From Acidobacteria bacterium RBG_13_68_16 (lineage in GTDB: Bacteria; Acidobacteriota; Thermoanaerobaculia; Thermoanaerobaculales; Thermoanaerobaculaceae), in NCBI GenBank assembly GCA_001766905.1, contig MEKI01000137.1, forward strand, positions 30,319 to 94,318: a DNA stretch of 64,000 nucleotides. The letters are read 5' to 3'. A program made the translations under genes and the position numbers. This document shows positions 10,080-54,738 of the stretch, piece by piece (positions within the stretch are counted from its first letter, which is position 1; every line of letters starts with the position of its first letter). The notes beneath the pieces are model-generated. The model was not told where the DNA came from, ran no database searches, and worked only from the letters and a program-made list of their open reading frames with translations.

Positions 10080-10896
10080 GGGCATCGCCGCGCTGATCCC
10101 CGAGGCGCCTTCGCTGAAAACCACCGGCGTGGCGGATCTGCCCGTGGCCGAGATCCACCCCAACCCCCTGCAGCCCCGACGCCAGTTCTCCGCCGCGAGC
10201 CTGGAGGAGCTGGCCGACTCGCTCAAGCAGCACGGGCTGCTTCAACCGGTGGTGGTGAGCCGCGGATCCACCGGGGGGTATGAGCTGATCGCCGGGGAGC
10301 GCCGGTGGCGTGCGGCGCGCCTGGCCGGTCTCGAGCGCATCCCGGCGGTGCTGCGGGAGCCGGAAGGGGACGCCGACCAGCTGGCACTGGCGTTGATCGA
10401 GAACCTCCAGCGCGAGGACCTGACCCCGATCGAGGAGGCGCGCGCCTACCACCACCTGCGCTCGGAGCTGGGTCTGTCCCAGGAGGAGATCGCCCGGCGA
10501 GTCGGGAAGGAGCGCTCCACGGTGGCCAACGCCCTGCGCCTGCTGCAGCTGCCGATGGCGGTCCAGGAGCTGGTTGACGGCGGGGAGCTCTCCGCCGGGC
10601 ACGCCCGTGCGCTCGCCGGTGTCGGTGAGGCCGAGCGGCAGGTGGGCCTGGCCGGGCGCTGCGTGCGCGAGGGGTGGAGCGTGCGGGATCTCGAGCGGCA
10701 CCTGCAGCCCCGCCCGGCCCGGCGGCGCCGGGCCGTGGACCCGGAAACTCAGGAAGCGGCCGATCGTCTCTCGCTGGCGCTTGGCGTTCGGGTTGAGATT
10801 CACCGCCGGCGCCGCGGCGGCGAGATCCGTCTGCGCTTTGCGAGCGAGGACGATCTCATCCGGCTGTTTCGGCAGTTGACGCGGGAGAGACGATGA
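10057..10896 (+). CDS. parB: Chromosome partitioning protein ParB (Spo0J)
   Basis: MKRSALGKGIAALIP start, ParB box GERRWRAARLAG, LIENLQREDLTPIEEA, and an HTH (EEIARRVGKERSTVANALRLL). Start revised to ATG 10057. Confidence 0.95.
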   Translation: MKRSALGKGIAALIPEAPSLKTTGVADLPVAEIHPNPLQPRRQFSAASLEELADSLKQHGLLQPVVVSRGSTGGYELIAGERRWRAARLAGLERIPAVLREPEGDADQLALALIENLQREDLTPIEEARAYHHLRSELGLSQEEIARRVGKERSTVANALRLLQLPMAVQELVDGGELSAGHARALAGVGEAERQVGLAGRCVREGWSVRDLERHLQPRPARRRRAVDPETQEAADRLSLALGVRVEIHRRRRGGEIRLRFASEDDLIRLFRQLTRERR

Positions 10897-18506: not shown

Positions 18507-18524
18507 GCGGGTATCATAGCTTTC

Positions 18525-31855: not shown

Positions 31856-32358
31856 ACCGCCTCCGCTTCGCCACGATCCAGGGCCACAGCGATCCCGAGC
31901 CGCTCTCGCATCTGTCCGACGTGATCGGTGTCGTGGGCGAGTGCAAGCGCGACCAGGTCGGCCACGCTCGTCTCGCCCCTCACCGGGTGCACTCCGACCC
32001 GCGCCAGCCCGGCTGCGGAGCAGCTCGACAGCAACTCCAGTGTCTCAACTCTGCGCGAGCGAAAGCGCTCGAAGGCGACAGCCGGAGGCCACGAGTTGTA
32101 ACCCGCGAGCTCGGCCAGCACCGCCCCCTGGAACGGCTGCAGGAACGGCCGCTCTGAGGTGAGGACCAGGCGTGTCCGGGTGCCGAAGAAGAGCTCGGCG
32201 TCGGCGAGGTGGGCCAACACCTCGACGGGCGTCCACACGCCCTGGTCTGGCCGGCGCCTCCAGGCGTCGGGTGGGGCCAGGCGAAGCAGCTCCGCCACAC
32301 GCGGCGGCGTCTCCGCGAGCGCCTTGATCTGCACGAGGGCTTCCAGGAGGTCGGCCAT
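31843..32358 (-). CDS. DinB-family (DinB_2-like) four-helix-bundle protein
   Basis: 171 aa with His-containing helices (VLAHLADAELFF ... LALAHDTDHVGQM), characteristic of the DinB/YfiT superfamily. Confidence 0.75.
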   Translation of the reverse strand: MADLLEALVQIKALAETPPRVAELLRLAPPDAWRRRPDQGVWTPVEVLAHLADAELFFGTRTRLVLTSERPFLQPFQGAVLAELAGYNSWPPAVAFERFRSRRVETLELLSSCSAAGLARVGVHPVRGETSVADLVALALAHDTDHVGQMRERLGIAVALDRGEAEAVWRR

Positions 32359-32415
32359 GGAGCTCCGGGGGATTCTACGTCAGCGCCGCCCGGAGGGGCT
32401 GTAGAATCCGGACCC

Positions 32416-42800: not shown

Positions 42801-43468
42801 GCGGCCCTCCTGACCCGGTACAGGGAGAGGGTCTCTGAGATCAAATGCCGGCGGCCGACCACCGCCGCCTCGAGACCCCCCGTGGCGCACCCCGCGAAGA
42901 AGCCGTCCGCCTCCGCGAGGGAGGAGAGCAACACCAGGGCGTGGCCGAGGGGCTCCAGGTGGGCAGCGAGCGACCCGGTGAAGCGTTCGAAGAAGTCCGG
43001 TGCGCGCCAGGAGGCATCCCAGAGGTCGCGCGGCGAGCCGCGGTAGAAGGGGGGGTTGCAGAGCACGACGTCGAAGCGCCGACCGTCAAACGGCCCGAAC
43101 AGATCGCCCTCCGCAACCGAAACACGGTCCTCGCAACGGTTGAGCATGACGTTGAGGCGGGCGCAGCGCACCGCGTGGGGGTTGAGGTCGACCGCCGCCA
43201 CCGAGCGGGCGAACTGTGCCGCCACGATCGCAAGGGCGCCCGAACCGGTCCCCACGTCCAGGACGTCGGCGGTGCTGGGAACGAGCTCGGGGGTGAGGGC
43301 CGAGGCGAAGAAACCGGTGGTGAGGAACAGGGTCGGGTTGAAAACCTCGGGCAGAACCAGGAGCGGGTGGCCGGCGAACCGCTCCAGGACCAGCCGACGG
43401 TGGCGGCGACGCTGGAACAGCACGAACCGCCCCCGGAGGTAGAGGCGGACGAGGCTAGCGCGCACCAT
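42797..43468 (-). CDS. NPPF-motif class I methyltransferase (HemK/RsmC-like small MTase domain)
   Basis: VLDVGTGSGALAIVAA (motif I) and VVLCNPPFY (motif IV of N-directed amino-methyltransferases). Start provisionally ATG 43468. Its stop overlaps the radical SAM ATG (ATGA). Confidence 0.78.
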   Translation of the reverse strand: MVRASLVRLYLRGRFVLFQRRRHRRLVLERFAGHPLLVLPEVFNPTLFLTTGFFASALTPELVPSTADVLDVGTGSGALAIVAAQFARSVAAVDLNPHAVRCARLNVMLNRCEDRVSVAEGDLFGPFDGRRFDVVLCNPPFYRGSPRDLWDASWRAPDFFERFTGSLAAHLEPLGHALVLLSSLAEADGFFAGCATGGLEAAVVGRRHLISETLSLYRVRRAA

Positions 43469-44462
43469 TCCGCCTCCCGAACCGGGTTTCCAATCGACTT
43501 GCCGCCCAAGGGCGGCGCCGCCCAACGATGACCGGAAACGTAGCCCGTTCCCTCTGGCCCCTCATGGTTGCCAAAAGGGAGTGTCCTCGCATCGGCCACC
43601 AGCGGAGGGGCCGCAGCAACCGGAAGCGCAGCCCCAGATCGGTGGCGAGTTCACGCAATCGGCGATGGGTGAGGAAACCCTCGCTGGCGACGGCATTGGA
43701 CGGGAATCCGTGGTCGCGGATAAACGCGTGCTCGCGCTCGCGGACCATCCGGGCCCCGCTCACTGCGTCGTGGTAGATGGGGGAATCCATGATCACGAGA
43801 TGGCCGGTGTCGCCAAGAACCCGCAGCGCCTCGGCGAGCGTCACCACGAGGTCCGGGGAGTAGTGCAACGCGGCGTTGAACACCACGATGTCCGCCTGTC
43901 GCCCGGCGAACGGCAGGTGGTCAAAGTCCGCCACGACCGAGGTGAAAACCGTCGGGTAGTGCACGTGGGCCCCGAGTCCGTCGCGCGCGTCGTCGCAGAG
44001 GTCCACGGCTGCAAGCCGGTGTCCCCGCTCCGAGAGACGGTGCGACAGCCAGCTGTTACCCGCCCCGAGGTCCAGCACGGAAAGCGGCGTTTGGGTCTGC
44101 AGTTCGATGGGGCGAAGCACGCGCTGGACCAGAGTTGCATAGCTGGCCGCGCGGATTCGCCAGATCTCCTCGAAGCGCCCGGTGAGGTCCACGAAGGGGA
44201 GGGCGCGGAAGTAAGCGGGGCCGCGGCTGCCCCACCCTTCCCGGTGCCGCACCTCGCGGTACTCGGTCACGAAGCGACGCAGCGCCAGTTCGCGTTCCGG
44301 CGGCAGGAGGTGCCAGATGCCTCCATCGCGCGAGAAGCGCAGCTCGCAGGCCGGGCAGCGGAGGAGGTCGCGGCCGCTCGGGAACGGCTGCCGACACCGG
44401 GGGCAGGCCAACCGAAACTCGGTCGGCGTCTCCACGTTCAGGGCAAATGCGCTCTCACTCAC
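43455..44462 (-). CDS. Class I SAM methyltransferase with N-terminal CxxC...CxxC zinc ribbon
   Basis: CPRCRQPF...LRCPACELRF (Trm112-like ribbon), then VLDLGAGNSWLSHRLSERG...DIVVFNAALHY. Confidence 0.78.
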   Translation of the reverse strand: MSESAFALNVETPTEFRLACPRCRQPFPSGRDLLRCPACELRFSRDGGIWHLLPPERELALRRFVTEYREVRHREGWGSRGPAYFRALPFVDLTGRFEEIWRIRAASYATLVQRVLRPIELQTQTPLSVLDLGAGNSWLSHRLSERGHRLAAVDLCDDARDGLGAHVHYPTVFTSVVADFDHLPFAGRQADIVVFNAALHYSPDLVVTLAEALRVLGDTGHLVIMDSPIYHDAVSGARMVREREHAFIRDHGFPSNAVASEGFLTHRRLRELATDLGLRFRLLRPLRWWPMRGHSLLATMRGQRERATFPVIVGRRRPWAASRLETRFGRRNGAR

Positions 44463-45267
44463 GTTTGCGTAGCACCATCAGGAAGTGGTCGCCGGCCTCT
44501 CGCAGCAGCGGGAGGGCGCCGAGCTTTCCGTCCAGCCACCAGAGCGCCCGGCTCGCCCGGCGCAGGCGCCGGTGGAACCCCACGAGGTACGGAGGCGGAG
44601 AGAAGAGACCCAAGGCGCGAGACGCCTCGTGCGCGAACGAGCCCCGGAAGTGATCGAGAAACTCCTTCGGTCGGTAGTAACGGGTCCACACCGTGCCGCG
44701 GTTCAAGCCGACCGGGACCGCGCGTGAGCCGAGACGCACGAGCGCACGCCGCAGGTCGCCGCGAGCCACGAAGTACGCCAGTTCCCAGGGACAGAGCTTG
44801 CCCATGACCGACGCAACGAGCACGCCTCCGCCGTTGAGGAGGCTGCCGCAGCCCGCCGCAACGGCTGAGAGGTCCGGGACGCAGTTGAGGGCTCCCAGGT
44901 CCGAGTAGATGGCGTCGAACGGCCCCCCTGAAAGCCGGTCCAGCGCTTCGATACCCAATTCCAGGGCCGTGACACGCTCGGTAAGCCCCTCCTCGGCCGC
45001 ACGGGCGCGGGTCCGGGCCACCATCTGTGGCGAGGCATCGATGGCCACGACCGTGTAGCCGCGCGCCGCAAGGTGGGCGGCGTCGATGCCGGTGCCGCAC
45101 CCGACGTCCAGGAGCCGTGCGCCGGGGCTCACCCGTCGGGTGAGTTCATCGACCAGGCCTGTGCGCATCCGCTGGACGATTTCGTTGTTGCCGAACGGCC
45201 CGTCGTAGAAGGAGGCGACGGAGTCGAACGCCTGCCGCGTCTCGTGCAGCTGCGCCTGGGCGCTCAC
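44455..45267 (-). CDS. Class I SAM methyltransferase (Methyltransf_11/25-like)
   Basis: LLDVGCGTGIDAAHLAARGYTVVAIDASPQMV...FDAIYSDLGALNCV. The GTG start overlaps the upstream stop (GTGA). Confidence 0.83.
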   Translation of the reverse strand: MSAQAQLHETRQAFDSVASFYDGPFGNNEIVQRMRTGLVDELTRRVSPGARLLDVGCGTGIDAAHLAARGYTVVAIDASPQMVARTRARAAEEGLTERVTALELGIEALDRLSGGPFDAIYSDLGALNCVPDLSAVAAGCGSLLNGGGVLVASVMGKLCPWELAYFVARGDLRRALVRLGSRAVPVGLNRGTVWTRYYRPKEFLDHFRGSFAHEASRALGLFSPPPYLVGFHRRLRRASRALWWLDGKLGALPLLREAGDHFLMVLRKRE

Positions 45268-46817
45268 GGCTCACCTTCGCTTTGGGCGGTGGGTCGGGCG
45301 GCCTCGGTGGGAACCATGTGGGGCAGCAGCCCGACTCCGTCGTACGGCGCCCGCGCGAAGAGCGCGAGGCGCACCCGGGCGAGCGGCAGCGTGAGGGCGT
45401 TGTAGGCCATCGCCGCCGCGTGACGCAACTCCCGGCGGCCAAGGCGGAGGGGGTGCCGCAGCGCGTGGCGCAGGGCTCGGGCCGACCTTCGCGCGCGAAA
45501 CTCCTTGTGCAGCACGGTGTGGAGCTGACGGTAAAAGCCGGTGGAGAAAGGCCCCCGGTAGAGCATCGCGAGATCCGAGGAGTCCTGCCAGTTCTGCTTG
45601 GCACCCAGCTCGCTGCGGACCGTTTCGAAGAAGCGTGTGCCGGGGAGCGGGTACGACACGGACATTCCGATGTCATCCGGCGCGCACGCTCGAACCATTT
45701 GGAGGGTCTTCTCGATGTCCTCGCGGGTCTCACCCGGATAACCGAACTGGAGGAAGAAGCAGACCTCGACGCCTGCCTCGTGCAGGCGCCGCGCGGCCTC
45801 GTGGATCTGCTCGACCCTGGTGCCCTTGTCCATCGCGTCCAGGATCCTCTGCGATCCGGACTCGGCCCCGACCCAGACCGTCCTGGCACCTGCGCGCGCG
45901 AGTGCGGCGATCGTATCCCCCTTGAGGAGCAGGTCGACGCGGTGAAGGCTCTTGAAAGGGACGAGTGCGTTCTCACGCTCTGCGACTTCGGCGAAGCGCT
46001 GGACCCAGCCAGGCTTGAGGCCAAGGATGTCGTCGGCGAAGGAGATCTGGTCGGGGTTGTAGGTCCGCTTGAGCCATGCGAGCTCGGCCACGACGTTCTC
46101 GGGGGAGCGGGCGTGGTAGCGCTGACCCCAGATCGGCTTGGCGCACCAGTTGCAGTGGTACGGGCACCCCCGTGTCGTGACCATGTTCATCGAGAAGTAC
46201 CCGTGGTGCTTGACCCAAATTGCTCGGTACCGAGGGACATCGATGAGGTCCCACGCCGGGAAGGGGAGCGCATCGAGATCCGCGAGCACTGGGCGAGGAG
46301 CGGTATGAATCACCCGTGAGCCGACGATGGTGTCCGGAAACGCGAGCCCCGGGATCCGGTCCAGGGGCGTGTCGGTGCGGCCGGTGAGCCGGGCCATTAA
46401 CTCGGCGAGGGTGGCCTCGCCCTCACCGATCGTCACGAAGTCTGCGCCGCGCGCGAGGTACTCCTCGGCGTGGTCAGAGGCGTCGGCCCCAGCCACGATC
46501 AGCGTGCTGCCGTGCCGCTTCGCCATACCGATCATCGTGAAGGCTGCCTCGCGCATGCGCAGCAGGCACATTTTCGAGAGGTAGTTGAAGTTGTCCTCGA
46601 AGAGGACGGCGAACTGCGGGCGCTCACGGTCGAGCGCCTCGGACCACGCCCACTCCGAGTCGGCCAGCATCGCGTCGAAGAGGGCGACATCGTGACCGTG
46701 CTCGCGCAACACGCTTGCCGCGTACATCGTGCCCAGCGGAGGGTAGGGCTGCATCCCCTCCCAGAGCTTGGGATCAAAACGCAGGTAGTACGACTGACCG
46801 AGGAGGACCGCGCTCAT
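45264..46817 (-). CDS. Cobalamin (B12)-binding-domain radical SAM enzyme, copy 2
   Basis: Start revised to ATG 46817 (MSAVLLGQSYY). B12-binding-like N-terminus (AVLFEDNFNYL...LIVAGADASDH...FVTIGEGE), then TRGCPYHCNWC (46143..46166). Not obviously similar in sequence to copy 1 outside the shared motifs. Confidence 0.88.
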   Translation of the reverse strand: MSAVLLGQSYYLRFDPKLWEGMQPYPPLGTMYAASVLREHGHDVALFDAMLADSEWAWSEALDRERPQFAVLFEDNFNYLSKMCLLRMREAAFTMIGMAKRHGSTLIVAGADASDHAEEYLARGADFVTIGEGEATLAELMARLTGRTDTPLDRIPGLAFPDTIVGSRVIHTAPRPVLADLDALPFPAWDLIDVPRYRAIWVKHHGYFSMNMVTTRGCPYHCNWCAKPIWGQRYHARSPENVVAELAWLKRTYNPDQISFADDILGLKPGWVQRFAEVAERENALVPFKSLHRVDLLLKGDTIAALARAGARTVWVGAESGSQRILDAMDKGTRVEQIHEAARRLHEAGVEVCFFLQFGYPGETREDIEKTLQMVRACAPDDIGMSVSYPLPGTRFFETVRSELGAKQNWQDSSDLAMLYRGPFSTGFYRQLHTVLHKEFRARRSARALRHALRHPLRLGRRELRHAAAMAYNALTLPLARVRLALFARAPYDGVGLLPHMVPTEAARPTAQSEGEP

Positions 46818-47770
46818 GCCCACGCTCCGTCGAGCTGACGAAGGCGCGTCTCCCACGCCGCGAGAATCCGTGCCCCGTGGCCGTGGAAGTGGCCCTTGTA
46901 CCCGTCGGCGTCGAACGCTGCCTCGCCGCCGGAGAGCTCACCGCGCGCGAGCTTTCCCTGCAGGTGAGATGCCTGCCAGCGCGCCAGCGCCGCCTCGATG
47001 CGGTCGCCGACGCGGCCGCGCAGCGCGGCTTCGGCCAAGCGCGCGAGGGCTCCGCCCACCCGACGCGGCGTCACCGAAGGAGGCGCGACTCCTGGGGAGT
47101 TGGGCAGGAAGATGCGAACCCAGGGGTTGGCCTCGCGCATGCGCTCGCACGTTTCGGGTCCCGCGATAGGCACCATCTGTAGCAGTTCGTGCGCGGTGTA
47201 GAGCGTGCGCTCGGCCAGAGCGAGCGCCCGTTCGGAGAGGACGTAGTTGGGGCAAAGACGGGTGCCGGCGGCGCCTGCCGCTCTGGCGAGGGCGGTCACC
47301 AGCGCCCGGCACAGCCAGACTCTCCCGGTACTTGCCACCACGAGGTAGTCGATATCCGCGTCGGGCTCGACGGCGTCCACAGCGAGGGCACCGGTGACCG
47401 CCACCATGCGAACGAAGGGAAGCGCCCCGAAAACCCGCCCCCAGCGCCGTGCGCGCGGCCACAGCGCCGCAGCCGAGGTCTCTCGCCGGAGGCGGACCTC
47501 CACGATCGCCTCGCGCCCCACGAGAGTGAAGAACTCGCCCCATCGCGTCGTGCGGCGCACGAGGCGCGGCGAGCGGTCCAGAGCCTCCGTGACGTCCGCG
47601 AGGGTGGCGTGCGCTGCGACCAGGTGCCGATGTGCCTCGGCAGCGGTGAGGGGGTGATCGAAGAGGTCGGCGTAGGCGAGCGTGGCGAGAACAGCGCGCG
47701 GAAGGTCGGGCACGGCCGGTGCGAGATCGGCGGGGAGAGACGTGTCGGTTGGGAGCCAGTTCGCCGTCAT
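46814..47770 (-). CDS. Unknown 318-aa protein with a Pol-beta nucleotidyltransferase-like G-x-x10-DxD signature
   Basis: VAVTGALAVDAVEPDADIDYLVV fits the pattern hG[GS]x9-13DxD, with Ala in place of Ser. Coding-like composition. Its stop overlaps the radical SAM ATG (ATGA). No confident family assignment. Confidence 0.55.
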   Translation of the reverse strand: MTANWLPTDTSLPADLAPAVPDLPRAVLATLAYADLFDHPLTAAEAHRHLVAAHATLADVTEALDRSPRLVRRTTRWGEFFTLVGREAIVEVRLRRETSAAALWPRARRWGRVFGALPFVRMVAVTGALAVDAVEPDADIDYLVVASTGRVWLCRALVTALARAAGAAGTRLCPNYVLSERALALAERTLYTAHELLQMVPIAGPETCERMREANPWVRIFLPNSPGVAPPSVTPRRVGGALARLAEAALRGRVGDRIEAALARWQASHLQGKLARGELSGGEAAFDADGYKGHFHGHGARILAAWETRLRQLDGAWA

Positions 47771-47780
47771 GCTGTATGCC

Positions 47781-48986
47781 CTACCCGATTGCGCGCGAAC
47801 GCGCCGCTCCCACCGGGCTGCCCAACACCCTGAGCATCTCTTGCTGGAAGCGAGCCTTGGAGAAGCGCTGCGCCGTCGCGCTGACGCGCCGCGGGTCGAA
47901 CCGTCGAAAGTTGAACGCCGTCAGGGCGGCCGCCAGCGTGTCGGTCTCCTGTCGGTCGAAGAAGACGCCGTTGACTCCTTCCTGGACGATATCGAGCGCC
48001 CCACCCGCTCGGTAGGCGATGACGGGCGTGCCACACGCGACCGCCTCGGCGGCGACGAGGCCAAAATCCTCGACCTGAGGGAAGATCAAGCCCCTCGCTT
48101 CGCGGTACAGGCGGGGCAACTGGGTCTCCTCGACCCAACCAAGGAACTCGACCGTGGGACCGGCCAGGCGCTGCAGGCGCTTGCGCTCACGGCCCACCCC
48201 CGCGATCTTGAGGGGGAGGCCCAACCGGGTGCAGGCCTCGATGCCGAGGTCGAAGCGCTTGTAGGGGAGGAGTCTTCCGACCATGAGGAAGTAGCCGTCT
48301 AACGTCGACCTGGCCCCGGTGCCGTTAACGCAGTACGTCTCGGTGTCAACGGGTGGAAAGACGACGGCGTCCGGCTGGCGGCCGTAGATCTCGCGAATAC
48401 GGCCGGCGATGTGAGTGGACACCGCAAGGAGTGTGGTGGGGCGCAGCGCAGCTTTGCGGTCCCACCGTCGCATCACGCGGAAGAGCGCCTCGCCCACCGC
48501 GGTGACTGGTGGGCTGGCCAGGAAGCCGTTGACGTACTTGGTCACGTCCTCCCAGAGGTAGCGTGTTGGCGTGTAGCAGTAGCAGACGTGGGGGACGTGG
48601 GGCGGCGGGACGACCCCCTTCGAGTACGAAGCGCTCGACGAGAGCACCAGGTCGAACCCGGAGAAGTCGAAGCGCTCGACCGCTCCGGGAAAGCTCCAGA
48701 AGAACAGGTGGTGGTGGTTGCCTATCCGCTTGCCTGCCACGGGGAGGCGGCTCAGAAAGGAGGTGCGCACATCCTTAGAACGGAAACGTCCTCGGGTACG
48801 GCCCTCGTCGTAGAACAGGCTGAAGATCGGTGAGCGAGGGAACATCTCGCAGAGCACTTCGAGAACGCGCTCGGCGCCGCCGTACTGCACGAGGAAATCG
48901 TGGGCGATGGCGATCCGCAGCGGGAGGTTGCGGTCCCTGGGGCGGGGTTCGGTGATGACCGGCACGTGCGCTCGCGCGGCTGGCAT
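47781..48986 (-). CDS. GT4-family (GT-B) glycosyltransferase; first gene of the nine-gene operon
   Basis: RIAIAHDFLVQYGGAERVLEVLCEMFP N-terminus and a C-terminal LKIAGVGRERKRL...EDFGLVAAEAVACGTPVIA (E-x7-E-type region). Confidence 0.85.
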   Translation of the reverse strand: MPAARAHVPVITEPRPRDRNLPLRIAIAHDFLVQYGGAERVLEVLCEMFPRSPIFSLFYDEGRTRGRFRSKDVRTSFLSRLPVAGKRIGNHHHLFFWSFPGAVERFDFSGFDLVLSSSASYSKGVVPPPHVPHVCYCYTPTRYLWEDVTKYVNGFLASPPVTAVGEALFRVMRRWDRKAALRPTTLLAVSTHIAGRIREIYGRQPDAVVFPPVDTETYCVNGTGARSTLDGYFLMVGRLLPYKRFDLGIEACTRLGLPLKIAGVGRERKRLQRLAGPTVEFLGWVEETQLPRLYREARGLIFPQVEDFGLVAAEAVACGTPVIAYRAGGALDIVQEGVNGVFFDRQETDTLAAALTAFNFRRFDPRRVSATAQRFSKARFQQEMLRVLGSPVGAARSRAIG

Positions 48987-49105: not shown

Positions 49106-49124
49106 CACGGCCCCAGGGGCCGTG
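49106..49124 (-). terminator. GC-rich hairpin downstream of the outer-membrane operon (possible terminator)
   Basis: CACGGCCCC-A-GGGGCCGTG is a perfect 9-nt inverted repeat about 45 nt past the stop at 49170. No U-tract follows on the minus strand, so it is not a canonical intrinsic terminator. Confidence 0.3.
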
Positions 49125-49169: not shown

Positions 49170-52004
49170 CTAGAACTGGAACCCGACCCAGAACGAGGTC
49201 TGGGCACCTCTGCTGATAGTGTGCTTGAAGTCCCACTGCTTCGAGAAGTCCCAGTTGACCGGCAGGCCGAACAGGTAGAGCGACATTCCGAACCCATACG
49301 ACGACACGCAGTCCTGGAGCCTGCCATCACTCATACAGGTGAAGTCCTGCTTGTAGCCTGGCACGTCGAAGTAGGCGCCGCCCACGTCCAGGAAGAAACG
49401 GCCGCGCACCTCGGCGAGTTGCAGCCACGGCAGGATCAGCCGGTCGATGAGCGGGAAGCGCCACTCCGCGTTGAGGTAGGCCGCGCGGTTGCCGACCAGG
49501 GTGTTGTAGTCGAAGCCCCGAAGCGTGTCGAGGCCCCCGAAGTAGTTGATGTTGGGGCGGTCACCGTTGGCCAGCGTGGCGTACAGGCGCAGGGCGAGCT
49601 CGTTGCGGCGCGACAGCGGGAGGTACTGACGCCCGTCGAAGGTGACGTCCCGTGAGAGCGTACCCCCGCCGGTGTTGAATGCGTTGCTCAGGGTCAGCTG
49701 GTAGCGGCGCCCGGCGTGGGGGCCGTAGCTCTGCCAGGACACCGTGTCTCCAGTAAAGGAGGCTTGCACGAAGGGGACCTTGTCCTCCACGTCGACGAAC
49801 GCCAGCCCGAACTCCGTCTGAACCGGGTACGCCGCGCTTCGGTCGATGTAGCCCACCGCGCCCCCGACGCGGTGGTAGAGGGAAAGCGGGTACTGGGCGA
49901 ACGCGGCAACGCCGGTCTCCCGATAGACCCGCTGTCGCAACACGTTGCCCTCGAGCGAGGCCCCGTAGACGTAGTACTGGCGGTTGTCGAAGACAGTTGC
50001 CCCCCACTGCATGCGCTTCGCGAGTTCAAGGTAAGTGAACTGGAAGTTGGAGAACCCGCTCACCGATTCGAGCAGCAGGTCGAAGCGACGGTCGCCGTAC
50101 TGGTCGGCAAAGGAAAGGTAGGTCTGGGAGACCAGCGTGTTGTCGCTATTGACGCCGACGAGCACCTGGGCGCCATCGATGAACAGCTGGCGCTTCTTGA
50201 CCGCCTCGATCTTGTCCTTGCTGACGGTCACGGTCACCGCCGGCACGTACGGCTGGCGCTCCTTCACCTCCTGGGGTGCCTCCTCCTTACCAGCGGGCTT
50301 GCCCTCGACCGGGTCGGTCTCGTAGAGCCAGAAGTGGCCCTTCGTGTAGGCCTGGTAGACGACCCGTTCGCCGTCGCGGGTCGGCACCGCCACGGGGTTG
50401 GTGGCTGCGCCGACGACTCTGGTCAGGCGGGTGAGATCGTGGGTGTCGAGGGCGAGCATGTAAACGTCGTAGATGCCGCCGTCGCGGTCGGAGGTGAAGA
50501 AGATGTGCTTGCCGTCGCGGGAGAAAGAGCTTCCCTCGTCGTTCCCGGCGGCGAAGGTGAGCTGCTGGCGTTCGGTCGGGTTGGTCAGAGAGATCTCGAA
50601 AAGCTTGGCGTTCTCTGCGGTCTGGGAGCTGTAGACGATGCGCTTCCCATCGGGCGTGAACACCGGGTCGGAGTCGTACGCTTCGTCGTTGGTGAGGTTG
50701 GTGAGCTTGTCGGTTGCGAGGTCCAGCAGGTAGATGTCGGAGTGACCCCCGGCGTAGGCGTGGAAGGCGATGGTCGTCCCGTCAGGCGAGTAGGCGGGTT
50801 GCATCGCTTGGTCCACGTCGACCGGGATCGTGCGTTCGATGCCGCCGGAAAGCGCGTTGAAGAACACGAGCATACGCCCGCGCTCGTGACGGGCGAAGGC
50901 TGCCACGCGATCGCCGTTGGGCGAGAACGCCAGGTCACGTCCGCGGTCGGGCCCGACGGTGAGCATCTGCGCGACCAGGTACTGGTAATCGGTGGTCTCG
51001 CGCGGGGTGAGGGTACGGAAAAGACTGCGGTCCGGGACCCCGAGTAGCACGATGTCTATGTTCTCCCTGTAGGTGGAGAAGGCGGCAATCAGGTCGCCGG
51101 AAGGCGACGCGATGGGCGAGGTTTCGTACGAGCGTGTGCCCTCCGGTCCAGCGATCCTGAACTCCCGGCCGAACTCTCGCGGATCTGCGCGGTCGGCAAT
51201 GGTGGGCTGGTAAAACTTGCGCAGCCACGCGCGGAAGCGGGCGTCGAACTCGTCGGGTTCGATGTCGAAGGCCCTTTTGAGGGCCTTCGCGACCCCGCTG
51301 CCGAGGGTGTTGCGGAACTCGTATATGAAGTCGCGGAGACCATCCTGGCCCCACTCCGCCTCGACGAATTGGAAGACCATGTGCCCGAAGCGGTACGCAG
51401 CGTACCCTTGGATGTCGACCATGACCGAGGGCACACGATCAGAGGCCACGGCGTCGCGCATGACGGCCTTGGCCATTGCGTCCTCATCGTTGCCAAAGTA
51501 CGACGCCATCCCCTCCATGAACCACTGCGGCGGACTCATCGCAAGCGCCTTGCCCAGCCTCCCCTGGTACATAATCTCGAACTGGAAGACGTGGGTCAGC
51601 TCGTGCTGGATGAGTTGCTGGAGTTGCTGGTCGGGCATGTCCACCGGCAGCACCATGCGGTTGCGGGCGGGTACCGCAAACGCTCCGACGCCCTCCGGGA
51701 TGAACTCGGCGATGACGTTGTTCTGCTCGAATTCCGCGTGGGTGGCGAAGGCAATCAGCGGAATCGGGTCCGGGACCTGGTAGTTGAGCTTGCGGGCGAG
51801 CTCGTCGTAGGCGGACTCGGCGAAAGAGGCGAGCTTGGGCAGGGAAGGCTCGACGTGATCGTAGAAGGAGATCCGGAAGTGCGGTGTCGGGTAGACCTTC
51901 CAGCGAAAGGTGTCGTAGCGGACCTTGTTCTTGCCGAAGTATTGTGCGGCGGCCGAAGACGCGAGCAAGAGCGCCAGCACGGGAACGATCAGACGCAGCT
52001 TCAT
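49170..52004 (-). CDS. 944-aa outer-membrane protein: signal peptide, MA-clan gluzincin-like domain, TolB-like PD40 beta-propeller and Omp85-type beta-barrel (no POTRA)
   Basis: Start revised to ATG 52004 (MKLRLIVPVLALLLASSAAAQ, GGGAGGG RBS). HELTH at 51591..51605 with a downstream WFMEGMASYF. Five PD40-type repeats (SPSGD, SPNGD, SPDGT, TPDGK, SRDGK). The Omp85 loop-6 motif GGLDTLRGFDYN is near 49512..49535. The C-terminus is the aromatic ...FWVGFQF. Confidence 0.85.
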   Translation of the reverse strand: MKLRLIVPVLALLLASSAAAQYFGKNKVRYDTFRWKVYPTPHFRISFYDHVEPSLPKLASFAESAYDELARKLNYQVPDPIPLIAFATHAEFEQNNVIAEFIPEGVGAFAVPARNRMVLPVDMPDQQLQQLIQHELTHVFQFEIMYQGRLGKALAMSPPQWFMEGMASYFGNDEDAMAKAVMRDAVASDRVPSVMVDIQGYAAYRFGHMVFQFVEAEWGQDGLRDFIYEFRNTLGSGVAKALKRAFDIEPDEFDARFRAWLRKFYQPTIADRADPREFGREFRIAGPEGTRSYETSPIASPSGDLIAAFSTYRENIDIVLLGVPDRSLFRTLTPRETTDYQYLVAQMLTVGPDRGRDLAFSPNGDRVAAFARHERGRMLVFFNALSGGIERTIPVDVDQAMQPAYSPDGTTIAFHAYAGGHSDIYLLDLATDKLTNLTNDEAYDSDPVFTPDGKRIVYSSQTAENAKLFEISLTNPTERQQLTFAAGNDEGSSFSRDGKHIFFTSDRDGGIYDVYMLALDTHDLTRLTRVVGAATNPVAVPTRDGERVVYQAYTKGHFWLYETDPVEGKPAGKEEAPQEVKERQPYVPAVTVTVSKDKIEAVKKRQLFIDGAQVLVGVNSDNTLVSQTYLSFADQYGDRRFDLLLESVSGFSNFQFTYLELAKRMQWGATVFDNRQYYVYGASLEGNVLRQRVYRETGVAAFAQYPLSLYHRVGGAVGYIDRSAAYPVQTEFGLAFVDVEDKVPFVQASFTGDTVSWQSYGPHAGRRYQLTLSNAFNTGGGTLSRDVTFDGRQYLPLSRRNELALRLYATLANGDRPNINYFGGLDTLRGFDYNTLVGNRAAYLNAEWRFPLIDRLILPWLQLAEVRGRFFLDVGGAYFDVPGYKQDFTCMSDGRLQDCVSSYGFGMSLYLFGLPVNWDFSKQWDFKHTISRGAQTSFWVGFQF

Positions 52005-52014
52005 CGCGCCCTCC

Positions 52015-52701
52015 CTAGGGTACAAAGAGCATTCGCCTGGTCTTGACGCTGCGGGGGACAAACACGCCAATGATCTGGTTCTCCAGGGCAAAGAGGTTGG
52101 CAAACATGCCGGTGAACTCGTCGAAGTTTCGCTCCGGCTTCTCCTGAAAGTCTTTGAGCGGCTGTTCGAAGACCGGGGCGCCCGTACGGGCGTCGTAGAC
52201 GTTGAGCAGGATGTCGTACGTGAAGCCTGTCTGCTCGACGAGCACCTGACGGTAGAACGTTTGCCCGGTGACGGGAGACTCGTAAGGCTCCATCTTGTAG
52301 GCGGTGCGGTCCTGTACCTCGAAATCGATGGACCCGGCCACGATGTAGTCGGCACCGGTCTGGGTCCCAAGCTCGCGCCAGAAGTCGGAGCTCTTTGCCA
52401 GGCGCAGGGGGTCGGAGGTCGGTGGACGGACGCCCTGGACGGCGGGGAGAAGGATGTACTTGCTCTCCTTGCGGAGCAGCTTGCGGATGTAGCGCTCGAA
52501 CTCTGCGGGGACGTCGAAGGCGAGGTCCGGTGCTTTCTCGTCACCTTTCCGCTCCCGCACGAAAGGGCCGATGTACAGCTTCTCGTGGCCGGTGAAGGCG
52601 ACCTTGGAGCGCACCGGCAGGGAGAGCTGCACGTCGCGCATCCCCCCGACGCACCCGGCGGCAAGGACGCAAATGGTGATGGCCAGTCTAGCGTGGCGCA
52701 T
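52015..52701 (-). CDS. Putative lipoprotein of unknown function (228 aa)
   Basis: MRHARLAITICVLAAGC is a signal peptide ending in a lipobox-like AAGC. The body is soluble and charged. It lies 10 nt upstream of the OMP gene and overlaps the TPR gene by 14 nt. Confidence 0.65.
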   Translation of the reverse strand: MRHARLAITICVLAAGCVGGMRDVQLSLPVRSKVAFTGHEKLYIGPFVRERKGDEKAPDLAFDVPAEFERYIRKLLRKESKYILLPAVQGVRPPTSDPLRLAKSSDFWRELGTQTGADYIVAGSIDFEVQDRTAYKMEPYESPVTGQTFYRQVLVEQTGFTYDILLNVYDARTGAPVFEQPLKDFQEKPERNFDEFTGMFANLFALENQIIGVFVPRSVKTRRMLFVP

Positions 52702-53065
52702 CGGACCCCTCCTTCGGCTTTACGCCCTTGGCGTAGCTGGTGTAGAACTCGGCAAAGCGGGCGTAGTTCTTGCGAATGACGCTGCTCTTGGGGGTGTCCT
52801 GGAGCGCCTGCTTATACGCTGCGAGAGCCTCGTCGTAGCGGCCCAGGGCCTCGAGAGCCACCGCGAGGTTGTTGAGGACCTCTCCGTTCGTGGGGTTCAG
52901 GTTACGAGCGCGCTCGAAGCGGAAGAACGCCTCTTGCCAGTAGCTGCGCTGCGCCGCCCTCACGCCCTCACGCATCTCGACGTGCGCCGCCGCCTGCGGT
53001 TTGCTGCCGCTGGCGCAGGCGCCGGAGATGACTGTAAGTCCCAGAACTGCTACTGCAAGCCGCAT
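52688..53065 (-). CDS. Small TPR-repeat putative lipoprotein (125 aa)
   Basis: MRLAVAVLGLTVISGAC is a signal peptide with a Cys. TPR-like helices follow (WQEAFFRFERARNLNPTNGEVLNNLAVALEALGRYDEALAAYKQAL). Confidence 0.7.
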   Translation of the reverse strand: MRLAVAVLGLTVISGACASGSKPQAAAHVEMREGVRAAQRSYWQEAFFRFERARNLNPTNGEVLNNLAVALEALGRYDEALAAYKQALQDTPKSSVIRKNYARFAEFYTSYAKGVKPKEGSDAPR

Positions 53066-53119
53066 AGTCCCCCCGAAAACGTCCAGTTAGTATAGGCTCA
53101 CACGGAGGAGCGCATTCCC

Positions 53120-54145
53120 ATGTCTCGTCTCGCCTTGGCCTGTGTTGTTGCGCATCCGGAAGGCAGTCGCAGAGCGCGGGAGGTGGGGCGCGCCTTCGTA
53201 GCGGACCCGGATGTCGCGGGCAGCGAAGCCGACGAGATAAGGACCGCGCTCGAGGCCCGGGTGCCGGCCGTGGAGGGCGAGCTTTCCAGACTCGGCTGGC
53301 GCTTCGTTACGCCCGGCGATCCCGCCTTTCCACGGCGTGTCGCCGCCATCGTAGACCCACCCCTCGGCTTGTTCGTGCGCGGGACCCTCCCTGACGGGCA
53401 CGCGGTGGCACTGGTCGGGGCGCGTCGGGCCAGTGCCTACGGCCGCGAGGTGGCGGAATACCTCGGCCGCGAGCTCGCCGCTTCCGGCGTTGCGGTGGTC
53501 TCCGGAATGGCGCGGGGCGTGGACGCGGCCGCACACCGGGGTGCACTCGCGGCGGGCGGACCCACCGCCGGCGTCTGGGGTGCGGGCCCCGACCGGGTTT
53601 ACCCCCCGGAGCACGGAGCGTTGGCCGAGGAGATCGCCGCCCACGGCTGCCTCGTGACCGAGTACCCCCCGGGGTGCGCCCCGCTCGCCCATCACTTCCC
53701 CGAGCGTAACCGGATCATTGCCGGTCTCTCGGAAGCGGTGGTCGTGGTCGAGGCGGACGAGCGCTCCGGGGCGCTCATCACGGCACGCCTTGCGCTCGAG
53801 GAGGGGCGCGAGGTGATGGCGGTGCCTGGTTCTGTGTTCTCGCGTCTCTCGGCCGGGCCGAACGGTCTCCTGCGCGCGGGCGCTGCACCGGTGCTCACCG
53901 CCGACGACGTGCTGGGCGCTCTCGGTCTGCCCCCGCACCCCGCGCGCGTCGACGCTTCTGAGGAGCCCCCACTGCTCGCAATGATCCGGCCAGGGGAGGC
54001 GGTCACGGTAGACCGCCTGGCCGTCGAGAGCGGATTCCCGATCGCACAGGTGCTGGAGGCGCTCCTCGCGCTCGAGCTCGCCGGCCGGGTCTCCAGGCAG
54101 GCTGACGGCAGGTATTGCCGCTCGCACGTCGGCCCCGACTCCTAG
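53120..54145 (+). CDS. dprA: DNA processing protein DprA (Smf)
   Basis: Rossmann-like DprA core (VALVGARRASAYG...VVSGMARGVDAAAHRGAL...ERNRIIAGLS...VVVEADERSGALITA) plus a C-terminal winged-helix-like domain. The start codon is uncertain. Confidence 0.9.
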   Translation: MSRLALACVVAHPEGSRRAREVGRAFVADPDVAGSEADEIRTALEARVPAVEGELSRLGWRFVTPGDPAFPRRVAAIVDPPLGLFVRGTLPDGHAVALVGARRASAYGREVAEYLGRELAASGVAVVSGMARGVDAAAHRGALAAGGPTAGVWGAGPDRVYPPEHGALAEEIAAHGCLVTEYPPGCAPLAHHFPERNRIIAGLSEAVVVVEADERSGALITARLALEEGREVMAVPGSVFSRLSAGPNGLLRAGAAPVLTADDVLGALGLPPHPARVDASEEPPLLAMIRPGEAVTVDRLAVESGFPIAQVLEALLALELAGRVSRQADGRYCRSHVGPDS

Positions 54146-54738
54146 CTCTCGGATCCCAGCCGGAAGGGGATTCGAACGTTGGTCTCTTCCAGGTCGATTT
54201 GCAGCTCGTACGGCCCCGTTTGCACTCCCATCGGGATGTCGAAGTAAAGGCGACCGATCGCCACGTCCTGATCGTTGACCCACACGGATTCCAAGGCGAG
54301 GCCCGACCCTGGGGGCACGAGAAGGTCGAGGCCTTTCGGTCGGCGGCTTGGGTAGTAGTCGAGGGGCTCGCTCGCGACGTCCGCCCTCGCCAGCACGGCG
54401 GCCAGCTTCGGGTAGGCGGCCCCGAATTCCTGCTGGGTCGCCAACGGGATGATCTCGTCGCTGGGGGTGCGGATCGCGATCCTCTCCCGTTTGACCTCCA
54501 CCGAGTTCCGGGTCTCGGCCGTGATGCCGACATCGAGGAACAGCCAGTCCTCACCTGGGTTGGAGTTCGCGAACCGGTAGCTGAGCACGACATCGAGCTC
54601 CGGACCGCGGTAGTGCAGGATCGTGCCGCCGATACGCTCCACCCCCGGGGTCGCGGTCGGCGTGGCGGTGGAACACGCAAGGTTTGTCGTGAGTGCAAGC
54701 GCCAAAACGATCCCCATCGCAAGCCTCGTGGGCTTCAT
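54142..54738 (-). CDS. Secreted protein or possible lipoprotein of unknown function (198 aa)
   Basis: MKPTRLAMGIVLALALTTNLAC is a signal peptide with a Cys. GGAGGA RBS. The body is beta-rich. No family recognised. Confidence 0.6.
   Translation of the reverse strand: MKPTRLAMGIVLALALTTNLACSTATPTATPGVERIGGTILHYRGPELDVVLSYRFANSNPGEDWLFLDVGITAETRNSVEVKRERIAIRTPSDEIIPLATQQEFGAAYPKLAAVLARADVASEPLDYYPSRRPKGLDLLVPPGSGLALESVWVNDQDVAIGRLYFDIPMGVQTGPYELQIDLEETNVRIPFRLGSES

Follow-up and report, generated by a model that had tools for sequence, protein, structure and literature searches.

A conserved acidobacterial gene unit encoding a POTRA-less Omp85 barrel with an N-terminal gluzincin peptidase domain and a TolB-type propeller

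Results

Layout and conservation of a three-gene unit

The window analysed here, a stretch of 64,000 nucleotides from Acidobacteria bacterium RBG_13_68_16, carries three genes on its minus strand: the first encodes a TPR lipoprotein of 125 aa, the second an envelope protein of 228 aa and the third a fusion protein of 944 aa. The open reading frames agree with the layout given in an initial annotation of this DNA, in which genes 1 and 2 overlap by 14 nt and genes 2 and 3 are separated by 10 nt. The features of the locus are as follows (residue numbers from the signal peptide onwards are those of the 944-aa protein):

53066..53119, no strand: divergent intergenic region of 54 nt between the TPR gene and dprA
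52688..53065, minus: gene 1, TPR protein of 125 aa that has a signal peptide and the lipobox VISGA↓C (ORF, TPR profile matches)
52015..52701, minus: gene 2, 228-aa envelope protein with a predicted TolB-N/PelC/LptE/FlgT-M-like fold and lipobox LAAG↓C (ORF, AlphaFold2, Foldseek)
49170..52004, minus: gene 3 with its stop codon, 944-aa fusion of signal peptide, gluzincin domain, six-blade propeller and Omp85 barrel (ORF, profiles, AlphaFold2)
51942..52004, minus: Sec signal peptide, residues 1-21, ending SSAAA↓Q (read from the sequence)
51135..51941, minus: gluzincin (MA-clan) metallopeptidase domain, residues about 22-290 (Peptidase_MA_2 and PDB profile matches)
51591..51605, minus: HELTH zinc-binding and catalytic motif (H134, E135, H138), invariant in 46 close and 48 diverse relatives
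51513..51515, minus: E164 in WFMEG, predicted third zinc ligand (invariant; PDB profile alignment)
51393..51395, minus: Y204, predicted transition-state-stabilising tyrosine (invariant; PDB profile alignment)
50286..51125, minus: six-bladed TolB/PD40-type beta-propeller, residues 294-573 (PD40, TolB model, AlphaFold2, Foldseek)
50187..50285, minus: 33-residue linker (574-606) from propeller to barrel, no POTRA domain (AlphaFold2 model, POTRA profile search)
49173..50186, minus: 16-strand Omp85-type beta-barrel, residues 607-944, with the beta-signal end FWVGFQF (AlphaFold2, Foldseek, PF01103)
49512..49523, minus: loop-6 LRGF (L828-F831), the Omp85 'lid-lock' arginine motif (R829 invariant in 48 diverse relatives)
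49380..49394, minus: FLDVG (F871-G875), the FxDxG motif in strand 13, partner of the loop-6 arginine (conservation, AlphaFold2)
49106..49124, minus: GC-rich hairpin about 45 nt past the gene 3 stop codon, without a U-tract (fold energy -22.3 kcal/mol, z = -2.0)

GGAGG Shine-Dalgarno sites stand 5' of the start codons of genes 2 and 3, that of gene 3 being 6 nt upstream of its ATG, and the three genes are translationally coupled in the window. The mechanically called reading frame of the fusion reaches upstream to 52664; the start in all homologues is MKLRL. The 54-nt region shared with dprA is likely to be the promoter region of the unit, and a search of it for a sigma-70 consensus site found none; dprA is divergent and upstream in 63 of 80 related loci. 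At the other border, the hairpin may be where the transcription unit ends, and intrinsic-terminator prediction made no call there. Among the 80 related loci, the genes downstream are not conserved with the unit. Those lying just past gene 3 in the window encode a GT4 glycosyltransferase, a radical-SAM enzyme and two methyltransferases, a cluster found among the 80 loci only in the closest relative, L001. An OPT oligopeptide transporter is also encoded in the window, non-adjacent to the unit.

Among 80 Acidobacteriota loci, the order TPR gene, 228-aa gene and barrel gene on one strand was found in every one with enough upstream DNA. Both small genes are present in 72 and the 228-aa gene only in 6 more, while in locus L081 the TPR and 228-aa genes are fused. 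A second set of 80 loci, from distant members of the family, contains no homologue of either small protein within 5 kb of the barrel gene, and the partner genes are therefore not essential to the core mechanism. One distant clade has a BamB-like PQQ_2 lipoprotein immediately downstream of the barrel gene (15 of the 80 distant loci) and a PEGA protein about 1.1 kb downstream (11 of the 80) in place of the acidobacterial partners. Co-conservation of the two small genes with the barrel gene thus holds in Acidobacteriota, wherever the contig suffices, and breaks down in the distant loci.

Domain architecture of the 944-aa protein

The 944-aa protein is almost certainly a member of the 'WD40-like Omp85' subfamily, combining an N-terminal gluzincin peptidase, a six-bladed TolB-type propeller and a 16-strand barrel of the BamA/TamA type, with no POTRA domain. 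Its AlphaFold2 model (pLDDT 85.8, pTM 0.80) shows, in order, a helical N-domain, a 24-strand propeller, a 33-residue linker and 16 barrel strands. Profiles, model and Foldseek together bear out the four-part, POTRA-less architecture that had been read from the letters, and the HELTH motif at 51591..51605, the LRGFDYN sequence and the terminal VGFQF are all present. The signal peptide is followed by the mature N-terminus QYFGKNK, which is conserved family-wide. In a set of 48 diverse full-length relatives with 26-48% identity, G24, N26 and K27 show conservation of 90% or more, and residues 21-30 of the model have a mean pLDDT of only 52.

Profile searches with the window protein itself gave a clear result for PD40 (E 5.7e-21) and just sub-threshold ones for Peptidase_MA_2 (26.1 bits, or 26-30 bits across searches, cut-off 32.4) and for Omp85 PF01103 (23.7 bits, cut-off 24). 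Both sub-threshold calls are rescued by matches at the family level: among the 48 relatives, PD40 was detected in 47, Peptidase_MA_2 in 31 (best 8.5e-20) and Omp85 in 28 (best 4.7e-23). POTRA models matched none of the 48 at E<=0.001, and POTRA families gave no match in the window protein at E<=1. Some homologues are named 'BamA/TamA family outer membrane protein' by NCBI.

The peptidase assignment was strengthened at family level: of 22 N-domains, 18 match Peptidase_MA_2 (best 5.3e-19). Against the PDB, a family profile found the M1 aminopeptidase 3cia (1.5e-4) and the M9 collagenase 7esi (5.9e-3). E164, the predicted third zinc ligand, aligns with the zinc-ligand Glu of 3cia (in WLNEG) and with that of the WWSEG sequence in 7esi. 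Y204 aligns with the Tyr of GVPYVKGQ in 3cia, which we take to be the catalytic residue of M1 enzymes. H134, E135, H138, E164 and Y204 are invariant in all 48 relatives, as are R116 and D184, and the site looks intact. The GxMEN exopeptidase motif of M1 enzymes is absent from the 944-aa sequence.

For the middle domain, the TolB equivalog model matched at E 3.4e-49 (167.9 bits, under its own cut-off of 343), PDB TolB sequences at 1.7e-18 and, in Foldseek with the model, TolB at E 9e-13. The TolB-type propeller is thus upheld, and the count of five PD40 repeats gives way to six blades of four strands in the model. No propeller residue is invariant across the 48 relatives. A catalytic set that is invariant beside a propeller with no invariant residue is what would be expected if the enzyme is active and the propeller serves as its scaffold or gate. 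Precomputed Pfam matches in relatives include Tricorn_N, Tricorn_2nd and DPPIV_N.

The linker (574-606) is nearly without secondary structure in the model and shows no POTRA fold. The barrel strands that follow it (607-943) match BamA barrels (Foldseek E 2.5e-13, target TM 0.62-0.66), with a long loop L6 between strands 11 and 12. This position of loop 6 would place strand 1, and with it the N-terminal domains, on the periplasmic side by Omp85 topology. The LRGF 'lid-lock' arginine motif and FxDxG are defined in the Omp85 family (PMC11358297). In the 48 relatives F871, D873 and G875 show conservation of 90% or more, at a site within the 13th model strand (861-878). Since FxDxG and LRGF, with its invariant R829, are both conserved, the barrel is under Omp85-type constraint, and the strength of this conservation suggests from sequence a barrel role beyond anchoring.

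The two small envelope proteins

The gene 1 product is a TPR protein that matches TPR_2 (E 6.7e-12) and numerous further TPR models; 48 of 72 orthologues carry a lipobox-like Cys. Its likening to BamD was not upheld, the BamD model TIGR03302 scoring 17 bits against a cut-off of 81.4.

The 228-aa protein has 441 homologues, none with an informative name, and scores 24.5 bits against FlgT_M, under the cut-off of 31.2. Its AlphaFold2 model (pLDDT 79.5) matched FlgT (1.5e-6) and PelC (1.7e-5) in Foldseek, followed by CsgG, LpoB, LptE and the TolB N-domain (rank 30, E 1e-3), with TM scores of only 0.3-0.6. A TolB-N/PelC/LptE/FlgT (ABD-like) fold is therefore predicted. The members of this fold class (FlgT, PelC, CsgG, LpoB, LptE, TolB-N) are outer-membrane-associated periplasmic proteins, several of which partner with barrels. 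The description of the gene 2 product as a second lipoprotein fits the window protein, which has the lipobox, and does not extend beyond its clade: only 10 of 77 orthologues (about 13%) have a lipobox-like Cys, and the majority have a signal-peptidase-I type end, ASA↓GVREV.

Discussion

A propeller-gated peptidase at the outer membrane as the most likely function

The most likely function of the unit, to which we give roughly even chances, is that of an outer-membrane-anchored, periplasm-facing, propeller-gated zinc peptidase complex. The barrel would act as an anchor that holds the enzyme module at the inner face of the outer membrane, and the gluzincin peptidase would be catalytically active. 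By analogy with tricorn protease, DPP-IV and the prolyl oligopeptidases, the propeller may filter substrates or offer a platform that binds them, which would restrict access to the active site to unfolded chains or peptides; unfolded envelope proteins or periplasmic oligopeptides would be the likeliest substrates. The pairing of propeller and peptidase is supported by the Tricorn_N, Tricorn_2nd and DPPIV_N matches in relatives and by a fold match to the tricorn-interacting factor F3 (PMC4104836). The predicted periplasmic orientation has a precedent in PlpD, the enzyme domain of which stays periplasmic (PMC11116518). The TPR lipoprotein and the 228-aa protein would be accessory subunits specific to Acidobacteriota, with a joint role in docking, stabilising or feeding, and other clades would use other accessories, such as the BamB-like lipoprotein and the PEGA protein. 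A partner role for the small proteins is supported by the gene order, the L081 fusion, the translational coupling and the 228-aa fold class, and the three proteins presumably associate physically. The idea that they may form a self-contained machine is a reasonable one.

An unlikely alternative is a cis-fused equivalent of BAM plus BepA, in which the POTRA-less barrel takes beta-barrel clients at a putatively opening lateral gate, the built-in peptidase matures or destroys them, and the TPR and LptE/PelC-like proteins are accessories in the style of BamD and BamE. The lid-lock motifs and the terminal beta-signal are kept as in functional Omp85s, the barrel is nearest to BamA, and the 15 distant loci with a BamB-like gene directly after the barrel gene, together with the likening of the subfamily to a BamA-BamB fusion by Heinz & Lithgow (PMC4104836), fit such an assembly; so does BepA, a TPR-bearing metalloprotease that docks on BAM. 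However, the POTRA domains are lacking, the TPR protein fails the BamD model, the peptidase is of the MA-clan M1/M9-like type rather than M48 like BepA, and the accessories vary between clades. The propeller, whose best sequence and fold match is TolB, could also belong to a Tol-Pal-like envelope device and bind a lipoprotein that is Pal-like or associated with peptidoglycan, with the TolB-N-fold protein and a CpoB-like TPR protein as the remaining Tol-type parts and the peptidase cutting peptidoglycan stem peptides or lipoprotein tethers. We consider this improbable: although the TolB N-domain and LpoB are among the fold matches of the 228-aa protein and the TPR protein very weakly matches a CpoB-like model (E 0.02), the TolB equivalog score is less than half of its cut-off, the TolB N-domain ranks low among those matches, the partners are missing in other clades, and the absence of any invariant propeller residue speaks against a single conserved ligand of the Pal kind.

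It is slightly less probable still that the barrel exports protease and propeller in a type V-like manner, for extracellular degradation by a peptide-fermenting organism. Translocation was raised by Heinz & Lithgow (PMC4104836) after the then-current view of PlpD, but with regard to another subfamily, the 'Metallo' Omp85 proteins (PF00149); the OPT transporter in the window points weakly in the same direction and is not adjacent. The N-terminus is placed in the periplasm by Omp85 topology, the PlpD precedent speaks against export of a folded domain (PMC11116518), and the linker is short and without a POTRA domain or a TpsB-type plug helix. Last, the TPR protein, the PelC-fold protein and the 16-strand barrel beside glycosyltransferase genes recall a PelBC-like polysaccharide export pore. 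PelC is indeed among the top fold matches of the 228-aa protein and the glycosyltransferase cluster lies just downstream, but that cluster is shared with L001 alone, the barrel carries Omp85 signature motifs and matches BamA, and such a pore leaves the conserved protease site without a role; this weak reading is very improbable.

Comparison with known systems

The predicted fold links the 228-aa protein to PelC, LptE, LpoB, CsgG, FlgT-M and TolB-N (Foldseek E 1.5e-6 to 1e-3), whereas its sequence similarity to them is sub-threshold and its lipidation is not conserved. The pairing of a PD40/tricorn-type propeller with a peptidase recalls tricorn with its M1 cofactor F3, DPP-IV and the S9 enzymes; these are cytosolic or soluble, and propeller gating in the 944-aa protein is putative. 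TolB likewise has a six-bladed PD40 propeller, but that of the window protein falls below the equivalog cut-off and is attached to both a barrel and a protease, and the N-terminal alpha/beta domain of TolB is not fused to it, a protein of that fold class being encoded separately.

Where BepA docks on BAM, a zinc metalloprotease likewise comes together with TPR repeats and an Omp85 barrel on the inner side of the outer membrane. BepA is an M48 enzyme that contains a TPR domain itself and engages BAM in trans, whereas here an MA-clan M1/M9-like protease forms one covalent chain with the barrel, and the TPR repeats are on another protein. PlpD, the patatin-like Omp85 of type Vd, also joins an N-terminal hydrolase to an Omp85 barrel, and its enzyme domain has been placed experimentally in the periplasm, export of folded domains through such barrels being judged energetically and structurally unfavourable (PMC11116518). 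Unlike the window protein, PlpD retains a single POTRA domain, has a lipase in place of the zinc peptidase, lacks a propeller and assembles into homodimers. With BamA and TamA the barrel shares 16 strands, a loop 6 between strands 11 and 12, the RGF and FxDxG motifs and an aromatic C-terminal beta-signal, and BamA barrels are its best structural match; enzyme and propeller sit where BamA and TamA have the POTRA arm, and the BamA equivalog model gives the window protein 21.5 bits against a cut-off of 297.

The closest known system is the 'WD40-like Omp85' subfamily, defined computationally by Heinz & Lithgow in 2014 (Front Microbiol 5:370, PMC4104836), with the same POTRA-less barrel, TolB-like PD40 repeats and N-terminal aminopeptidase/collagenase-like fold; the full-length relatives (26-48% identity) share all three parts. 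The protease-propeller-Omp85 architecture has thus been known since 2014. Table S3 of that work lists BamA/TamA, TolB and aminopeptidase fold matches for subfamily members, among which the Phyre matches to factor F3 (PDB 1z5h) recur for the N-domain; its main text treats only the propeller, as a 'BamA-BamB fusion', leaving the peptidase domain and gene neighbourhoods undiscussed. In the literature searched we found no functional study (activity, localisation or interaction) of any subfamily member and no earlier description of the TPR and TolB-N-fold partner genes of the acidobacterial clade. To this known architecture, the present analysis adds the conserved three-gene unit, the predicted fold and rare lipobox of the 228-aa protein, and the turnover of partners in distant clades.

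Organization of the three-gene unit

Inspection of the open reading frames gave three genes on the minus strand, with the overlap and the gap between them exactly as the initial annotation had described:

52688..53065, minus strand, TPR protein, 125 aa
52015..52701, minus strand, second protein, 228 aa, 14-nt overlap with the TPR gene
49170..52004, minus strand, fusion protein, 944 aa, 10-nt gap after the second gene

The mechanical ORF of the third gene reaches upstream to 52664; its homologues all start at the MKLRL signal peptide. Both the second and the third gene have a GGAGG Shine-Dalgarno sequence ahead of the start codon. Consensus scans for promoters and terminators at the unit found nothing, the sole terminator candidate being a GC-rich hairpin without a U-tract.

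Domain architecture of the 944-aa protein

The large protein, which carries HELTH (51591..51605), the loop motif LRGFDYN and the C-terminal VGFQF, had been read as a metalloprotease-like domain, a propeller of PD40 repeats and an Omp85 barrel, and profile searches support this reading. PD40 passes its Pfam cut-off (E 5.7e-21); Peptidase_MA_2 (26.1 bits for the full protein and 29.6 bits for the isolated domain versus a cut-off of 32.4) and Omp85 PF01103 (23.7 bits versus a gathering score of 24) stay just below theirs in this protein. Among 48 diverse full-length relatives (26-48% identity), 47 matched PD40, 31 Peptidase_MA_2 (best E 8.5e-20) and 28 Omp85 at E<=1e-3 (best 4.7e-23). Judged by these profile matches, the borderline Pfam calls of the 944-aa protein find support at the family level.

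An AlphaFold2 model based on 46 homologues (pLDDT 85.8, pTM 0.80) comprises a mostly helical N-domain (residues about 36-270), a propeller whose 24 strands make up six blades of four (residues 294-573) and a barrel of 16 strands (residues 607-943) with a long loop between strands 11 and 12. The 33-residue linker from propeller to barrel lacks the beta-alpha-alpha-beta-beta fold of a POTRA domain in the model, and no POTRA model was matched by the 944-aa protein at E<=1 or by any of the 48 relatives at E<=0.001. When the model was compared with the PDB by Foldseek, BamA barrels ranked top (E 2.5e-13, target TM 0.62-0.66), followed by TolB (E 9e-13); TolB was the only match in a PDB sequence search with the protein.

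TolB identity of the propeller was nevertheless rejected. In TolB, a six-bladed propeller follows an N-terminal alpha/beta domain in the same chain, whereas the 944-aa protein matches it over the propeller region only, the region upstream being the peptidase domain, and the NCBIfam TolB model (TIGR02800) scored 167.9 bits (E 3.4e-49) versus a cut-off of 343.15. Relatives of the protein also match Tricorn_N, Tricorn_2nd and DPPIV_N.

Loop 6 of the barrel contains L828-R829-G830-F831, with R829 invariant in the 48 relatives, and strand 13 contains F871-L-D873-V-G875, in which F871, D873 and G875 are at least 90% conserved. The lid-lock motifs of Omp85 proteins are (V/I/L)RG(F/Y/W) in loop 6 and FxDxG in strand 13 (PMC11358297). 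The NCBIfam BamA equivalog gave 21.5 bits versus a cut-off of 297. With 16 predicted strands of the BamA/TamA/FhaC type and both lid-lock motifs, the modelled barrel fits the Omp85 superfamily.

In the diverse alignment of the 48 relatives, the invariant positions are R116, H134, E135, H138, E164, G165, D184 and Y204 in the N-domain and D634, P706, G765, Y794, R829, E847 and G904 in the barrel, with no invariant residue in the propeller. We take this to mean that functional constraint acts on both the peptidase site and the Omp85 barrel, the propeller being kept as a scaffold.

Few stretches of the family are as conserved as the mature N-terminus, QYFGKNKVRY (51912..51941, residues 22-31), in which relatives at 26-48% identity keep G24, N26 and K27 to at least 90%. 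Residues 21-30 are modelled at low confidence (mean pLDDT 52). TolB carries an N-terminal TolA box, a partner-binding epitope, and by analogy this N-terminus could be a candidate epitope of the same kind.

The predicted peptidase site

The gluzincin signature is complete, comprising HExxH (H134, E135, H138) and the downstream E164 as predicted third zinc ligand, all invariant in the 48 relatives. Peptidase_MA_2 was matched by 18 of 22 family N-domains (best E 5.3e-19), and a profile of the N-domain family matched the M1 aminopeptidase 3cia (E 1.5e-4) and the M9 collagenase 7esi (E 5.9e-3). E164 is aligned with the zinc-ligand Glu of M1 'WLNEG' (3cia) and M9 'WWSEG' (7esi), and Y204 with a Tyr of 3cia that we take to be the catalytic tyrosine of M1 enzymes. 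Membership of M1 itself was ruled out: the GxMEN exopeptidase motif is absent from the translation of the 944-aa protein, read directly, and the Pfam Peptidase_M1 model was matched by only one of the 22 N-domains (E 0.0073). The domain is therefore placed as a gluzincin at the clan level. With its catalytic set intact, the predicted zinc peptidase is apparently active.

Conservation of the unit in Acidobacteriota

A genome scan with the narrower alignment A3, one genome per species, retrieved 80 loci, nearly all labelled Acidobacteriota, from Thermoanaerobaculia and Holophagae, in which the barrel protein is 36-79% identical. In every locus with enough upstream DNA, the TPR gene, the second gene and the barrel gene follow one another on one strand. 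Both small genes are present in 72 of the 80 loci, every absence falling at a contig end, so the co-conservation on which the initial annotation had staked its reading is borne out in these loci. The gene dprA lies divergent upstream of the unit in 63 loci and topA in 38. Among named organisms, Thermoanaerobaculaceae are the closest; EG19_03790 of Thermoanaerobaculum aquaticum is 65% identical to the 944-aa protein.

The downstream glycosyltransferase, radical-SAM and methyltransferase genes were considered as further members of the unit and rejected, since across the 80 loci they are common only to the closest relative (locus L001); the conserved unit therefore consists of exactly three genes.

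Genomic surroundings

Other features were observed in the window:

43..2436, minus strand, gyrB
6987..8657, plus strand, yidC
8223..10226, minus strand, 667-aa ORF without a Pfam match at E<=1e-5
16590..19028, minus strand, 812-aa ORF without a Pfam match at E<=1e-5
28079..30370, plus strand, 763-aa protein with a C-terminal OmpA domain as its sole Pfam match and a large unannotated N-terminal part
32209..34461, plus strand, OPT-family oligopeptide transporter
43455..48986, minus strand, directly 3' of the unit: GT4 glycosyltransferase, 318-aa Pfam-less protein, B12-binding radical-SAM enzyme and two SAM methyltransferases
54142..54738, minus strand, between dprA and topA: 198-aa predicted lipoprotein (LALALTTNLAC) with zero Pfam matches

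That the cluster at 43455..48986 is shared only with L001 suggests that it is a modification cluster, either variable or acquired recently. The 198-aa predicted lipoprotein is kept at the dprA/topA position only in the five closest related loci. The 812- and 667-aa ORFs may be spurious frames over real genes in DNA of about 70% GC. Canonical BamA was not found among the nine large ORFs scanned in the window. Near the window start lie gyrB and yidC, the cumulative GC skew climbs steadily across the window, and the window may be near the replication origin region.

The two small proteins

The TPR protein (125 aa, about 2-3 repeats) had been likened to BamD, a likeness that fails. BamD is a lipoprotein of about 245 aa with five TPR repeats; the protein here is shorter, and the BamD model TIGR03302 gave 17 bits versus a cut-off of 81.4. 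Its best named match was Tgl, far below threshold (38.4 bits versus 225).

Both small proteins had also been described as lipoproteins. In the window, both signal peptides do end in a lipobox (ISGA|C in the TPR protein, LAAG|C in the second protein). Across orthologues, a lipobox-like Cys occurs in 48 of 72 TPR proteins but in only 10 of 77 second proteins, whose signal peptide mostly ends ASA|GVREV. On these sequences, lipidation of the small proteins does not appear to be a conserved feature.

None of the 441 homologues of the second protein has an informative name, NCBIfam gave zero matches to it, and FlgT_M (Pfam) scored 24.5 bits, below its cut-off of 31.2. Foldseek searches with its model (228 aa, pLDDT 79.5) returned significant fold similarity to FlgT (E 1.5e-6) and PelC (1.7e-5), with TM 0.3-0.6; further matches were 8z5n (a flagellar LPHT-ring entry), CT253, HpaA, CsgG, GNA1162, LpoB, LptE and the TolB N-domain. 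The set formed by FlgT, PelC, CsgG, LpoB, LptE and the TolB N-domain is one fold class, of ABD-like alpha/beta type, of outer-membrane-associated periplasmic proteins, several of which partner with barrels.

An apparent fusion of the two small proteins was seen in a single, more distant locus, L081 (4854..5990), where the barrel protein is 35% identical. In its 378-aa product, residues 10-115 correspond to the TPR protein and residues 204-331 to the second protein; an acidic Glu/Gln-rich linker joins them, and a lipobox Cys is lacking. This apparent fusion argues that the TPR and second proteins act together.

Partners beyond Acidobacteriota

A profile search of the protein database with the diverse alignment A2 found almost only Acidobacteriota and added two more distant loci. 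The family occurs widely: about 1,466 clusters (50% identity) were matched at E<=1e-30, including long multi-propeller proteins; many are full-length matches, and named homologues belong to Acidobacteriota (including Aminicenantes), WOR-3 and Cloacimonadota, with more accessions given by Heinz & Lithgow 2014. A further 80 distant metagenomic loci were fetched with a distant sub-alignment; the named homologues of their representatives are from Aminicenantes, WOR-3 and Cloacimonadota.

Searches with HMMs of the Acidobacteriota orthologues found no homologue of the TPR or second protein within 5 kb of these 80 distant barrel genes at E<=0.01, with one chance-level TPR match as the sole exception. 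Clustering of all flanking ORFs in the 80 loci yielded no universal neighbour, and those recurrent upstream neighbours that were checked have housekeeping roles (RNase R, MurA). The fusion gene of one distant clade sits in another operon: directly 3' of the barrel gene, 15 of the 80 loci encode a BamB-like PQQ_2 propeller protein of about 390 aa, with an ORF overlap or a 4-nt gap at the junction:

L120, L121, L122, L128, L131, L132, L137-L140, L145, L146, L150, L152, L160: distant loci with the BamB-like gene

The one example inspected, from L150, has a lipobox-like FTGC. A PEGA-domain protein (about 250 aa) comes next in 11 of the 80 distant loci, nine of them among those with the BamB-like gene. 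The accessories differ by clade and are therefore lineage-specific, as with BAM.

Relation to catalogued Omp85 proteins

Heinz & Lithgow 2014 (PMC4104836) divided the Omp85/TpsB superfamily into ten subfamilies, one of them 'WD40-like' and without POTRA. Their Table S2 lists architectures with PF07676 and PF01103, and Table S3, among the members shown, gives Phyre matches to BamA/TamA, to TolB and, for most members, to an 'aminopeptidase' template (among them 1z5h, 4kxd, 4fgm, 4ar1 and 3qnf), the tricorn-interacting factor F3 (1z5h) being a recurrent fold match. The main text treats the propeller only, as a possible BamA-BamB fusion. A 2024 paper sums up the class as Omp85s with 'divergent WD40 and peptidase domains'. 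Like the WD40-like proteins, the 944-aa protein combines a barrel and a PD40/TolB-like propeller with an aminopeptidase-like N-domain and lacks POTRA; it is almost certainly a member of this catalogued, functionally uncharacterised subfamily. The initial annotation had the anatomy largely right, and the architecture it reported, already catalogued in PMC4104836, is a rediscovery. Our search of the full-text literature found no experimental or functional work on the WD40-like family, and homologues bear public names such as 'hypothetical protein', 'PD40 domain-containing protein', 'Tol biopolymer transport system component' and 'BamA/TamA family outer membrane protein'.

Four points seem to be new: the strictly conserved three-gene unit of Acidobacteriota, the predicted fold of the second protein, the apparent joining of the TPR and second genes in one locus, and the alternative BamB-like and PEGA partners in another clade.

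Proposed function

Loop 6 lies between strands 11 and 12, which puts the start of strand 1 on the periplasmic side, and the peptidase and propeller would therefore hang in the periplasm. We propose that the unit may encode an outer-membrane-anchored, periplasm-facing zinc peptidase complex filtered by its propeller, with the TPR lipoprotein and the TolB-N/PelC-fold protein as clade-specific subunits that would dock or stabilise it. We give this mechanism about an even chance of being correct.

The main alternative holds that the barrel itself acts on beta-barrel clients, which the peptidase would mature or degrade, making one chain the analogue of BAM plus BepA. Such an active barrel is favoured by the conserved lid-lock and by the BamB-like neighbour seen in another clade, but the POTRA-less build and the clade-variable accessories weigh against it, and we consider it unlikely. 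Its wider form, also improbable, is a POTRA-independent Omp85 core whose barrel would engage clients, whose own zinc peptidase, gated by the propeller, would process or destroy those clients on the spot, and which would recruit lineage-specific accessories: if true, the TPR lipoprotein and the LptE/PelC-fold protein in Acidobacteriota and the BamB-like lipoprotein and the PEGA protein in another clade. Were the barrel an active POTRA-independent client-handling device, the finding would gain substantially in interest. A Tol-Pal-like role, a surface protease and Pel-like export are less likely readings.

In the outer membranes of bacteria and organelles, Omp85 proteins serve universally as insertases and translocases, and to our knowledge nearly everything learned about them involves POTRA domains. 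In this family a propeller and a zinc peptidase that appears to be active stand in for the POTRA arm, and the barrel retains its lid-lock signatures. The function of the family would tell whether an Omp85 barrel can be a platform for outer-membrane proteolysis, with possible roles in envelope quality control, protein maturation or peptide harvesting, and the Acidobacteriota unit and the partners in the other clade are concrete candidates for interaction and genetic tests.

[quoted passage not shown] In the Omp85 fusion PlpD, the hydrolase domain has been shown experimentally to stay periplasmic (PMC11116518), in agreement with the periplasmic side that we infer for the peptidase and propeller. 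The protein also resembles the propeller-gated peptidases, in which, as here, a PD40/tricorn-type propeller is paired with a peptidase.
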